Positions 18,015 through 21,000 of a DNA stretch of 29,568 bases are shown piece by piece. How positions within the stretch are numbered: the stretch's first letter is position 1; each line of letters begins with the position of its first letter. The stretch lies in the IMG/VR virus record IMGVR_UViG_2537562190_000016. One strand, written 5' to 3'. The position numbers were made by a program. The DNA comes from a virus (taxonomy: Duplodnaviria > Heunggongvirae > Uroviricota > Caudoviricetes).

Positions 18015-21000
18015 TGATCAGGATTGCGGCGCTACTCTCAATACTCTTAACTACCAGCGCCAATTCTGAATGCTGGATTGTCACAAACCTGCACGGGTAC
18101 GGGGCAATGAATGGCGATCGTTACGAGTTTACAAAAGACAGCACGGAAGATTCCGTTTTCAACGTAACAATAAATGGCGATAAATCATCAGTTTATGAAT
18201 CAGTTTCTGGCGTCTATCCAGAGATGAAATACACTGCTTTGTCATCGAACACTATGGTAGGAGAATACCAGTCTGGAGGAGGCATAACCGTTGAAACTTG
18301 GTCAATCACTACAGACAAAAAAGCTCTTTACTCCAAAGTAATGAACATCCCAGGTATGCAACAACTTACATCAACCAAATCCTTTGTTGGTGATGTAGTC
18401 GGAACCTGCAATCAGTAATCCCCACCTCAATCTCGATAACAAAAAAACAAACTATTTTCCGTTTAAAAACAATGGAGTTTGTTTTTCACGCCCTTTTTTA
18501 CAATATTTCTTGTTTACAACATACAATCTTCCTTGTAATTTTAAGCCATCAGCAGGACGCACTGACCACCATTGAAGGTGAGGCTCTTAAAAATTAAGCC
18601 CTGAAGAAGGGCAGCATTCAAAGCAGAAGGCTTTGGTGTGTGTGATACGAAACGAAGCATTGGCCGGAAGTGCGAATCCGGATTAGCTGCCAATGTGCCA
18701 TTGCGGGGTGTTTTCGTTCAGGACTACGACTCCCACACACAACCAAAGCTAACTGACAGGAGAATCCAGATGGATGCACAAACACGCCGCCGCGAACGTC
18801 GCGCAGAGAAACAGGCTCAATGGAAAGCAGCAAATCCCCTGTTGGTTGGGGTAAGCGCTAAACCAGTTAACCGCCCTATTCTCTCGCTGAATCGCAAACC
18901 GAAATCACGAGTAGAAAGCGCACTGAATCCGATAGACCTTACGGTGCTGGCTGAATACCACGAACAGATTGAAAGCAACCTGCAACGTATTGAGCGCAAG
19001 AATCATCGAGTTTGGTATAGCAAGCCAGGTGAGTTCGGTATAACTTGTCAAGGAAGACAAAAGGTTAAAGGGGAATCCATTCCATTGGCATGAGGTACGT
19101 AATGAAGAAGATTGATTACAAGTCCATACCAAAACCAATAGACTCAGCATCAGAGCGAAAAAAACACAAAAAAGAGGCTGAAAAATTAGCAAATTATATC
19201 AGTTTTATTAGAAACAATGCTCACGGCGATGGCGACAAGAAGTTGCTTTCAGATGCTCGGCCCCAAGCGTTCGGTATACTTCGTAAGCAGATGCAATATC
19301 GTCTTCATCCTGGCTACATAATTGAAATTCGCCCTACTGAAAGACAATTGTTCTTATTAAACTCTGTCTTTGACTTTGTAAACGTAGTTGGAGATCTTAT
19401 CGACAGGTCTGTAGATAAGGATCCTGATACAAATAGTTTTCTTCTAACAAATAAAGAATACTTATATGGTAAATTCGGTATAAACGGATGGCAAAAATAT
19501 GTACGCTTCTTACGTGCATTCGTTGATGCGTATAAAAATTCCGACATGATTTATACATATTTGCCTGGTGGTGATAATTGTACGCTTTCGGCAGACAATA
19601 GAATATTCATACCTGTACTTGGTCTTGGGCTGATTAATGCAGTAAATGAAAAAGATGTTATAATTGTTAAGCAGTGGCGAAAATATGAGGGATATAGATA
19701 TCTGCCATGCTTTGATATATTAAAAATACAGAATAAATTCTATGTAAAAATTAAATATAAAGAAGATATTTTCTTCCTCAGAAAAAACATAGATCTTTTA
19801 CAAGAACTTTCTGGTACAATAGATGTCATCTTAGGTTCTAGGTTTATAAAAGAACTGAAAGAAAGCAGGTCTTTCTCTCGTGTAGAGATAAGCGAGTCAG
19901 AGTTATGGGGTATATCAAATAATCCTGTAAACCACGCTCACCAACGAAACCCAAACAAAAAGTGGTCATAACCCGCTCAGGCGGATTTCATTTTCACGCA
20001 AACAACAGAATAAACACAGCGCTGTGTATTCATTCCAACGAGTGAATACACGGAGCAATGTCGCTCGTAACTAAACAGGAGCCGACTTGTTCTGATTATT
20101 GGAAATCTTCTTTGCCCTCCAAGATGAGGGCGATTTTTTATCTGTGAGGATATGAACAGATGTCAAACATCAAAAAATACATCATTGATTACGACTGGAA
20201 AGCATCAATAGAAATTGAAATCGACCATGACGTAATGACAGAGGAAAAACTTCACCAGATTAATAATTTCTGGTCAGACTCTGAATACCGACTCAATAAA
20301 CACGGCTCTGTATTAAATGCTGTATTAATCATGCTGGCGCAACATGCTCTGCTTATAGCAATTTCAAGCGACTTAAATGCATATGGTGTTGTGTGTGAGT
20401 TCGACTGGAATGATGGAAATGGTCAGGAAGGATGGCCTCCAATGGATGGTAGTGAAGGAATAAGAATTACCGATATCGATACATCAGGAATATTTGATTC
20501 AGATGATATGACTATCAAGGCCGCCTGAGCGCGGCGTTACCGCATACCAATTACGCTTCACTCGAGGCGTTTTTCGTTATGTATAAATAAGGAGCACACC
20601 ATGCAATATGCCATTGCAGGGTGGCCTGTTGCTGGCTGCCCTTCCGAATCTTTACTTGAACGAATCACCCGTAAATTACGTGACGGATGGAAACGCCTTA
20701 TCGACATACTTAATCAGCCAGGAGTCCCAAAAAATGGATCAAACAATTATGGCTATCCAGACTAAATTCACTATCGCCACTTTTATTGGCGATGAAAAGA
20801 TGTTTCGTGAGGCCGTCGACGCTTATAAAAAATGGATATTAATACTGAAACTGAGATCAAGCAAAAGCATTCACTAACCTGAACCGCCCCGGGTTTCCTG
20901 GAGAGTATTTTATCTGTGAACTCAGGCTGCCAGATCATTATTTCCGATGGAAGCATAATAAGCTTTTTCTGCTTCTGCCGGAGGAATATGGCCCAGCCTT

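Follow-up and report, generated by a model that had tools for sequence, protein, structure and literature searches.

Background and the gene under study

Sabotage of one phage's transcription by another has its textbook example in Nun, whose specificity is attributed to a boxB-binding arginine-rich peptide. Here we describe a gene whose product carries the same polymerase-jamming tail on a wholly different and much larger putative targeting domain. The gene lies at positions 19102-19971 of a 29,568-nucleotide (nt) stretch of caudoviral DNA (IMG/VR record IMGVR_UViG_2537562190_000016; "the window" below means this whole stretch), encodes a protein of 289 amino acids (aa), and is the homologue of gene 48 of phage 434, a founding model phage whose gene 48 has, to our knowledge, never been studied.

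The part of the protein ahead of the tail is predicted to resemble TnpB. In TnpB, much of the omega-RNA binding is provided by the RuvC domain. The TldR proteins, which are TnpB derivatives without cleavage activity, retain an inactivated RuvC and a guide RNA, and repress transcription by binding DNA at promoters.

In the cryo-electron microscopy structure of Nun on RNA polymerase (Kang et al., PMC5386594), the ordered part of Nun consists of residues 87-109 only. N97, H98, H100 and Q101-S109 contact the rudder, the RNA and the DNA, the stretch Q101-S109 fills the pocket between the hybrid and the downstream DNA, and R102 pairs with the terminal carboxylate (PMC5386594). Nun without its last 13 residues no longer binds (PMC5386594). 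Concentrated Nun arrests any elongation complex, so that Nun specificity stems from tethering; when over-produced, Nun is toxic through non-specific arrest of host polymerase (PMC5386594).

The Nun-identical C-terminal tail

The coding sequence and the features that surround its 3' end are as follows (residue numbers count from the 289-aa start unless 293-aa numbering is stated).

19102-19971, + strand: coding sequence with stop codon of the 289-aa protein, phage 434 gene 48 homologue, PHROG 12139; an alternative ATG lies upstream at 19090
19900-19926, + strand: variable spacer (aa 267-275), predicted disordered, the positional counterpart of Nun 87-95 and not similar to it
19927-19968, + strand: C-terminal tail VNHAHQRNPNKKWS (aa 276-289), identical to HK022/HK75 Nun 96-109
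19926-20141, + strand: mosaic DNA segment in common with nun-carrying phages (94% identity to HK75), comprising tail codons, stop, intergenic region and terminator

As seen in the list, the last 14 residues are those of HK022/HK75 Nun (P18683; PDB 6ALG; PHROG 5632), at the extreme C-terminus in both proteins, and they include N97, H98, H100, R102, K106, K107, W108 and the C-terminal S109 (Nun numbering). In Nun, this is the stretch that wedges itself into the cleft of RNA polymerase. HK75 Nun ends in ...EDVMHRVVNHAHQRNPNKKWS and the 289-aa protein in ...ELWGISNNPVNHAHQRNPNKKWS. Among solved structures the sole significant match is PDB 6ALG chain N (Nun), obtained via the tail, and the PHROG 5632 profile matches only aa 274-293 (293-aa numbering; profile 93-112, E 7e-5). 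At the DNA level, identity to HK75 starts abruptly at 19926 (codon 276), which marks a mosaic junction.

We identified divergent members of the family to which the protein belongs (the long family), with identities of 36-68% (P0003 68%, P0032 47%, P0005 46%, P0004 41%, P0006 37%, and also the L123 protein). All of them end in VNHAHxRxxxKKW(S) at the extreme C-terminus, and nine tail positions are invariant across six lineages. The tail codons vary synonymously among lineages (Ala GCT/GCC/GCG/GCA, Val GTA/GTG/GTT, Arg CGA/AGA), and the 3' flanks of the lineages are unrelated, each being a different terminator. Since the tail is kept in divergent relatives despite synonymous changes and unrelated downstream DNA, it is under selection and not only a recombination scar. 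An IMG/VR scan with a tail-less query returned 39 loci, all of the 434 type or of already-seen tailed lineages, with no other C-terminus among them. In IMG/VR, the motif stands 0-1 residue from the C-terminus, preceded by V or I, in 61 out of 61 distinct motif-bearing ORFs (open reading frames). The majority of these ORFs encode Nun-like proteins of just 79-123 aa, whose arginine-rich N-termini are of many unrelated kinds. Taken together, these comparisons show the tail to be a selected, portable C-terminal module.

The protein departs from Nun in several respects: it has 289 aa as compared to 109-112 aa; the boxB-binding arginine-rich motif of Nun is replaced by the TnpB-like domain; Nun residues 87-95, which make the zipper and upstream-DNA contacts (H93/R94), are not conserved, the Nun segment KYEDVMHRV being replaced by ELWGISNNP, with Asn in place of both H93 and R94; and N is not replaced, a lambda-type N and nut sites being present alongside the gene. 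Homology to the entire Nun C-terminal domain (FSR-VE-I against Nun FPRDVEKI) was considered and rejected, as an hhalign comparison of the long family with 33 short Nuns over the 45 residues preceding the tail gave E 0.57; nothing homologous was thus detected upstream of the tail.

Other tail-bearing genes were seen among the loci. In five 88-aa ORFs (L036, L039, L050, L051, L091), the Nun tail is joined to a lambda-N-like arginine-rich motif (MDAQARRREKRKEKQEEWKR...); at least 10 further unrelated N-terminal types carry it, and one locus (L029, 3257-3292 and 3556-3591) contains a tandem pair of such genes. Nun proteins as a family are far more diverse than the lone HK022 example suggests. In L130, an uncalled gene at 9037-9345 encodes a 102-aa Nun-like protein (arginine-rich N-terminus and ...VVNHAHQRRPNKKWS) 160 nt 3' of the long Nun-tailed gene, such that this prophage has N, long Nun and short Nun consecutively.

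Predicted fold of the protein body

Ahead of the spacer and tail, the protein was divided into four segments.

19102-19296, + strand: N-terminal helical hairpin (aa 1-65), specific to the long family and basic (isoelectric point, pI, 10.0); AlphaFold2 helices 16-38 and 43-65, pLDDT (predicted local distance difference test) 84-95
19297-19767, + strand: core domain (aa 66-222), predicted TnpB/Cas12-like WED + REC fold (strand 1, helical insert, WED strands), with no RuvC after it
19768-19860, + strand: helical linker (aa 223-253), low-confidence part of the AlphaFold2 model
19861-19899, + strand: most conserved block of the long family in alignments (aa 254-266), ESRSFSRVEISES; distant relatives have S-x-x-Y-S-R-V-D-F at that place

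When 1.84 billion representative proteins were searched with a profile, no more than 24 relatives emerged; the majority are distant, 213-326 aa long, and align to aa 73-227. AlphaFold2 with four sequences gave an unusable model (pLDDT 46); modelling became usable once the profile search had added the distant relatives (28-sequence alignment), with an overall pLDDT of 78.7 and values of 83-95 over aa 11-222. From residue 223 to residue 289 this model is of low confidence, as expected of a flexible tail. The top Foldseek matches of the model, in PDB and BFVD, are Cas12f, TnpB and a mimivirus TnpB-like transposase.

For comparison by sequence, the N-terminus of ISDra2 TnpB (100% identical to 8H1J) was taken and a 100-sequence TnpB N-terminal profile was built. 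hhalign gave a collinear alignment of aa 60-227 to TnpB 1-183 in this profile, a weak one (global E 5e-4, probability 12%), and against the single ISDra2 TnpB the first motif alone was aligned. The similarity of fold to TnpB, as judged from the model, is well supported; common ancestry with TnpB is unproven by sequence and plausible.

The predicted WED + REC fold is shared with the N-terminal part of TnpB and of Cas12f, Cas12n and Cas12p (IS200/IS605). Unlike those proteins, the 289-aa protein ends about 65 residues past the WED strands and has no RuvC, no zinc-finger/TNB domain, no D-E-D catalytic triad, and no HTH_OrfB_IS605 or OrfB_IS605 Pfam match (PF12323 HTH_OrfB_IS605 gave none up to E 10 in Pfam, and PF01385 and PF07282 gave none in the 28 members). 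There is no tnpA among the neighbouring genes. An adjacent omega or guide RNA was not found either: Rfam has no match nearby (no de novo covariation search was made), and the downstream DNA is not conserved within the family. As compared to TldRs, the protein would likewise be a TnpB derivative without cleavage acting on transcription, if the function proposed below holds; it differs in having no RuvC at all and in carrying a peptide that would enter the polymerase.

The basic N-terminal helix was examined as an arginine-rich motif of N/Nun type. Residues 14-30 are rich in Lys/Arg in five of the six lineages and not in P0003; as the helix is not conserved there and shows no co-variation with the neighbouring N type, the candidate was rejected and is kept as a weak lead. 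Overall, the model and alignments give an architecture of four parts: the basic N-terminal helical hairpin, a predicted nuclease-less WED + REC core, a poorly ordered segment of about 65 residues, and the end identical to Nun 96-109. Classified by sequence, the protein is a member of PHROG 12139 with a Nun-like C-terminus; it lacks the arginine-rich motif, the size and residues 87-95 of the Nun family, and it lacks the nuclease features of TnpB.

Position of the gene next to N

The gene is found in the following setting.

17385-18017: 434 repressor cI
18598-18612, + strand: nutL boxB hairpin (GCCCTGAAGAAGGGC), seen in the sequence and in the terminator/hairpin scan; nutL is annotated in the 434 record
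18770-19093, + strand: lambda-type N antiterminator (MDAQTRRRERRAEKQAQW...), conserved upstream partner of the gene
19090-19971, + strand: ORF in question as counted from the first ATG, 293 aa (ORF listing)
19090-19096, + strand: junction of N and the gene; N stop TGA (19091-19093) inside ATGA, then GAGG(T), the ribosome-binding site for the 19102 start
20112-20143, + strand: intrinsic terminator 3' of the gene, from the scan and annotated in the 434 record
20160-20528: ea10, downstream of the terminator

The surrounding DNA is the early region of a lambdoid prophage, with the order cII and cro (- strand), cI434, hex, oL/pL, nutL, N, the gene, the terminator, ea10 and cIII. The start at 19102 (289 aa) is most likely, and is favoured over the ATG at 19090 because it is the start annotated for 434 in GenBank, because a variant locus (L062) has no ATG at the upstream site, and because the alignment of divergent homologues at their N-termini agrees with it. 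A GAGG Shine-Dalgarno sequence (19092-19095) precedes this second ATG by 6 nt, and a ribosome-binding site is also annotated in the 434 record. The overlapping layout of N stop and ribosome-binding site suggests translational coupling to N. The frame is unlikely to be open by chance: a stop-free run of 293 codons has a probability of about 6e-11 at the local base composition, and the other five frames contain 8-28 stops.

A preliminary description of this DNA, made from the sequence alone, had reported a soluble, AT-rich ORF of about 289 aa abutting N, in the slot that holds ral and sieB in lambda, and all of this is borne out. The GC content is 34.3% (19102-19925); that of the N gene is 48.8% and that of the window 47.5%. 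With a pI of 9.5 the protein is basic; K, I, L, N and D are abundant in it, and since its highest 19-aa hydropathy is only 1.38, no membrane segment is expected. Lambda-like genes flank it on both sides, and it resembles Ral/SieB in its slot between N and ea10 and in its AT-rich, moron-like composition, and differs in that Pfam, PHROGs and NCBIfam give no match to either.

No internal + strand promoter was found by the scan upstream of the gene, and the terminator at 20112-20143 is the sole + strand terminator-like site within 18300-20250. The scan found no such site from hex to the gene either, and read-through from pRM is therefore possible. Because boxB lies at 18598-18612, the phage's own pL transcript bears the RNA targeted by classical Nun.

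The placement recurs in the long family. The gene begins at most 10 nt from the end of an N-type gene in the window and in L005, L130, L096, L079 and L123, the last five of which repeat the stop/start abutment seen at 19090, and these N genes carry four different types of arginine-rich motif. In L003 and L071 no N is present and the gene comes immediately behind cI, just where HK022 has nun. Five of the six lineages thus have the gene directly after N and the sixth has it in the nun slot; it is coupled to N, or replaces N, at the head of the pL operon. With Nun it has in common an early leftward-operon position beside the immunity region. In L079, a 384-aa ORF (1608-2762, function not assigned) lies between a 434-like cI and N, in the rex/hex slot, and may be a further moron.

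Distant relatives in defence loci

Three distant relatives of the core domain are encoded inside bacteriophage exclusion (BREX) operons, in the order BrxA-BrxB-BrxC-[gene]-PglX (P0031, P0033 and P0027, 276-288 aa).

L126 8001-8831, L131 7001-7867, L133 7001-7867 (also L127, L128, L132): BREX-embedded relatives

They have the same core domain (profile E 1e-16 to 1e-3; PHROG 12139 E 1e-13 to 5e-4), followed by a linker, a block like S-Y-S-R-V-D-F and a short basic C-terminal tail. They differ in that this tail is of GGLPSLGK(K/R)R type and not Nun, in that most of them are without the N-terminal helical hairpin, and in their place between brxC and pglX instead of a prophage early operon. The conserved tail of the distant relatives reads ...S-x-x-Y-S-R-V-D-F-x-x-L-x-G-x-x-V-x-G-G-L-P-S-L-G-K-R-R and is basic, and the BREX-embedded relatives whose sequence was read (e.g. 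P0027) end in ...GGLPSLGK(K/G)R. The gaps that flank the BREX-embedded gene are 22-35 nt on each side, and no PADLOC or Pfam model matches it; it may be an unrecognised BREX component.

Another relative (P0028; L129 2153-2992) has a ParB_N gene on one side and NYN/OST-HTH and RelA_SpoT genes on the other, and is found beside DrmC/DrmB of a defence island system associated with restriction-modification (DISARM). P0023, which is 86% identical to P0028, has an ordinary chromosomal setting. About 100 nt past the stop are conserved between these two, which is uninformative as the proteins are too close (86%).

Annotation and distribution

The DNA of the gene is 99.8% identical to phages 434 and 434B, and in 434 it is CPT_434_48 (gene 48). 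GenBank OL657226 labels the product 'Nun C-terminal peptide-containing protein' and RefSeq labels it hypothetical; the Nun tail had thus already been noted by the 434 annotators. PHROG 12139 (function not assigned) is matched over the full length (E 2.1e-205, aa 5-293 in 293-aa numbering against profile 1-289). Pfam (checked to E 10), NCBIfam and PADLOC gave nothing for the protein or the 28 family members, a PDB sequence search using the family profile gave no match, and PADLOC-DB 2.0 component models run against the protein and 27 relatives gave none save one chance Cas3 match (E 0.04). The 434 genome announcement (PMC9119081) does not discuss gene 48, and the literature searched here holds nothing on gene 48 or its family. 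In the libraries and literature searched, the family-wide conservation of the tail, the TnpB-like fold, the conserved pairing with N and the BREX-embedded relatives are undescribed.

The gene had been called unrecognised in the preliminary description, which is right for Pfam, NCBIfam and PADLOC and wrong for phage 434 gene 48, its Nun-tail label and PHROG 12139. Its statement that no catalytic motif is recognisable agrees with these searches, and the hidden Markov model and structure-based searches that it proposed yielded PHROG 12139, the Nun tail and, via Foldseek, the TnpB-like fold; the tail (the most informative feature) and the fold had not been seen in that description, and its overall reading is supported in part.

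In the phage collection only 434 and 434B are matched, and lambda imm434 is therefore apparently without the gene. Among 5,426 complete E. coli genomes, 117 contain the gene, full-length in 83, and the window matches prophages of O103, O121 and related strains. Two scans of GTDB species-representative genomes found no family member. In IMG/VR, the 434-type gene is usually accompanied by cI434, hex, lambda-type N and ea10, with a different repressor at three loci; a comparison across imm434-type prophages, as had been suggested, therefore meets at least one other repressor type, and lambda-type N is always adjacent.

Proposed function and alternatives

We propose that the gene encodes a modular transcription elongation arrest factor, a 'long Nun', and give this reading an even chance of being right. 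The TnpB-like domain, perhaps aided by the basic helix, would bind a specific nucleic acid (nascent RNA, DNA or hybrid) at or near a transcribing polymerase. Binding would increase the local concentration of the tail and so tether it to particular elongation complexes, which would then be arrested; complexes that transcribe rival phages or other mobile elements would be the likely targets. The loss of H93/R94 may lower non-specific affinity and leave the protein more reliant on its targeting domain. The phage's own nut-bearing transcription would perhaps be spared as the C-terminus of co-translated N enters the same cleft, which is the most speculative step and does not apply to the N-less lineage. 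The identity, selection and C-terminal position of the tail, its modularity, the fold, the position next to N or in the nun slot, and the defence contexts of relatives all support this reading. The preliminary description had proposed a defence, abortive-infection or anti-defence factor; a role in phage-phage or phage-host conflict is best supported, and the evidence favours elongation arrest and gives no specific support to abortive infection or anti-defence.

Several observations weigh against a long Nun. Only 14 of the 23 Nun residues ordered on polymerase are shared, and H93 and R94 are among those lost; the main effect of the R94A substitution is a strong weakening of Nun binding (PMC5386594). 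With the tail codons and 170 bp downstream 94% identical to HK75, the tail was exchanged recently by recombination in the 434 lineage. Distant relatives use another tail, so the core domain can evidently function without that of Nun. Sequence support for the TnpB link is weak (hhalign probability 3-12%, no Pfam match). A lysogen promoter for the gene was not found in the scan, which leaves an exclusion role in lysogens unproven, and some IMG/VR prophage copies have frameshifts or insertions.

The same arrest chemistry could serve the phage's own early lytic programme, as a regulator made together with N that shuts off the transcription of the host or of a resident prophage (takeover), or that times the phage's pL/pR transcription, with N-modified complexes protected. 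This would fit a gene in the pL operon that is translationally coupled to N, the repression of pL in lysogens with no internal + strand promoter found upstream, and the toxicity of over-produced Nun to host polymerase (PMC5386594). We consider it unlikely, as the L003/L071 lineage has no N and stands exactly at the nun place after cI, read-through from pRM is possible with no + strand terminator found from hex to N, relatives occur in defence islands, and lambda imm434 and lambda grow without the gene, which makes it dispensable for the lytic programme. It is more improbable still that the Nun tail is a passenger, with action only through the TnpB-like domain and the SFSRVEIS block (e.g. as a DNA-binding accessory, in the manner of the BREX-embedded relatives) and the tail kept only since the mosaic junction fell within an ancient nun gene. 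In the DNA, homology to nun phages does begin abruptly at codon 276 and run on through the terminator, distant relatives work with a different tail, and there is no Nun similarity upstream of it (E 0.57); these points have to be set against nine invariant positions in six lineages despite synonymous changes and unrelated 3' flanks, a tail that is always in frame at the extreme C-terminus, and the 39 tail-less-query loci, all of which are of the 434 type or known tailed lineages.

The predicted fold corresponds to the portion of TnpB in contact with the omega-RNA scaffold, the transposon-associated motif (TAM) DNA and the guide-target duplex, and TldR is an earlier case of a TnpB domesticated as a transcription factor. 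The domain might bind a guide RNA in the manner of TnpB and TldR and bring the Nun tail to polymerases on a complementary target. Such RNA-guided arrest seems very unlikely: the RuvC domain is missing, Rfam finds no RNA near the gene, the downstream region is common to ordinary nun phages, differs per long-family lineage and is merely a terminator, and the BREX-embedded relatives have flanking gaps of only 22-35 nt. Finally, with its N and nut of lambda type, 434 should be excluded by lysogens that make Nun, and the protein could be a decoy that occupies the tail-binding site or titrates a cofactor and so protects 434 transcription. The lambda boxB at 18598-18612, the lambda-type N and the identity of the tail to Nun would suit a decoy. 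We give it hardly any credence, since the shared residues are the arrest-causing ones, so that the decoy would itself stall polymerase, and the L003 lineage has no adjacent N gene.

Returning to the long Nun, a broader and more doubtful version, which we judge to be a good deal short of probable, joins three linked claims: a RuvC-less, TnpB-derived WED/REC scaffold, domesticated to target nucleic acids, delivers short C-terminal 'warhead' peptides, the Nun peptide version occurs in lambdoid phages, and the GGLPSLGKRR version is an unrecognised BREX core component. Warhead peptides would then be delivered into host machines, with the scaffold of the BREX subtype sitting between BrxC and PglX, and in the phages the transcription of rival elements would be arrested sequence-specifically, with polymerases of the phage itself shielded by co-translated N. 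Should the protein prove active, the tail of Nun would be a portable effector with a far wider range of possible targets. As the targeting domain resembles the front half of TnpB, TnpB would here have been domesticated along a new route, by complete removal of the nuclease; the scaffold also links to an unannotated gene in some operons of BREX, whose mechanism is still unsolved.

Other features of the window and altered copies

An Rfam scan of 17000-21000 found nothing beyond the expected cIII thermoregulator (Lambda_thermo, window 20588-20646, 88.5 bits). Between kil and gam/bet/exo, the window contains an IS3-family element (20922-22772; orfB 20922-21809, orfA 21809-22135) with a second, partial copy at 22161-22772 (orfA fused to the orfB N-terminus). 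Across this stretch, the genomes that match best are shorter by about 640 bp, and the partial tandem copy may therefore be strain-specific or an assembly artefact.

Among the altered IMG/VR copies of the gene (L163-L166, L172, L167-L169), four have a +1/-1 length change before codon 20, at A7 and A6 runs (window 19150-19180), and one is interrupted after codon 108, the same point at which three contigs break. These copies are either inactivated genes in some prophages or homopolymer sequencing errors.

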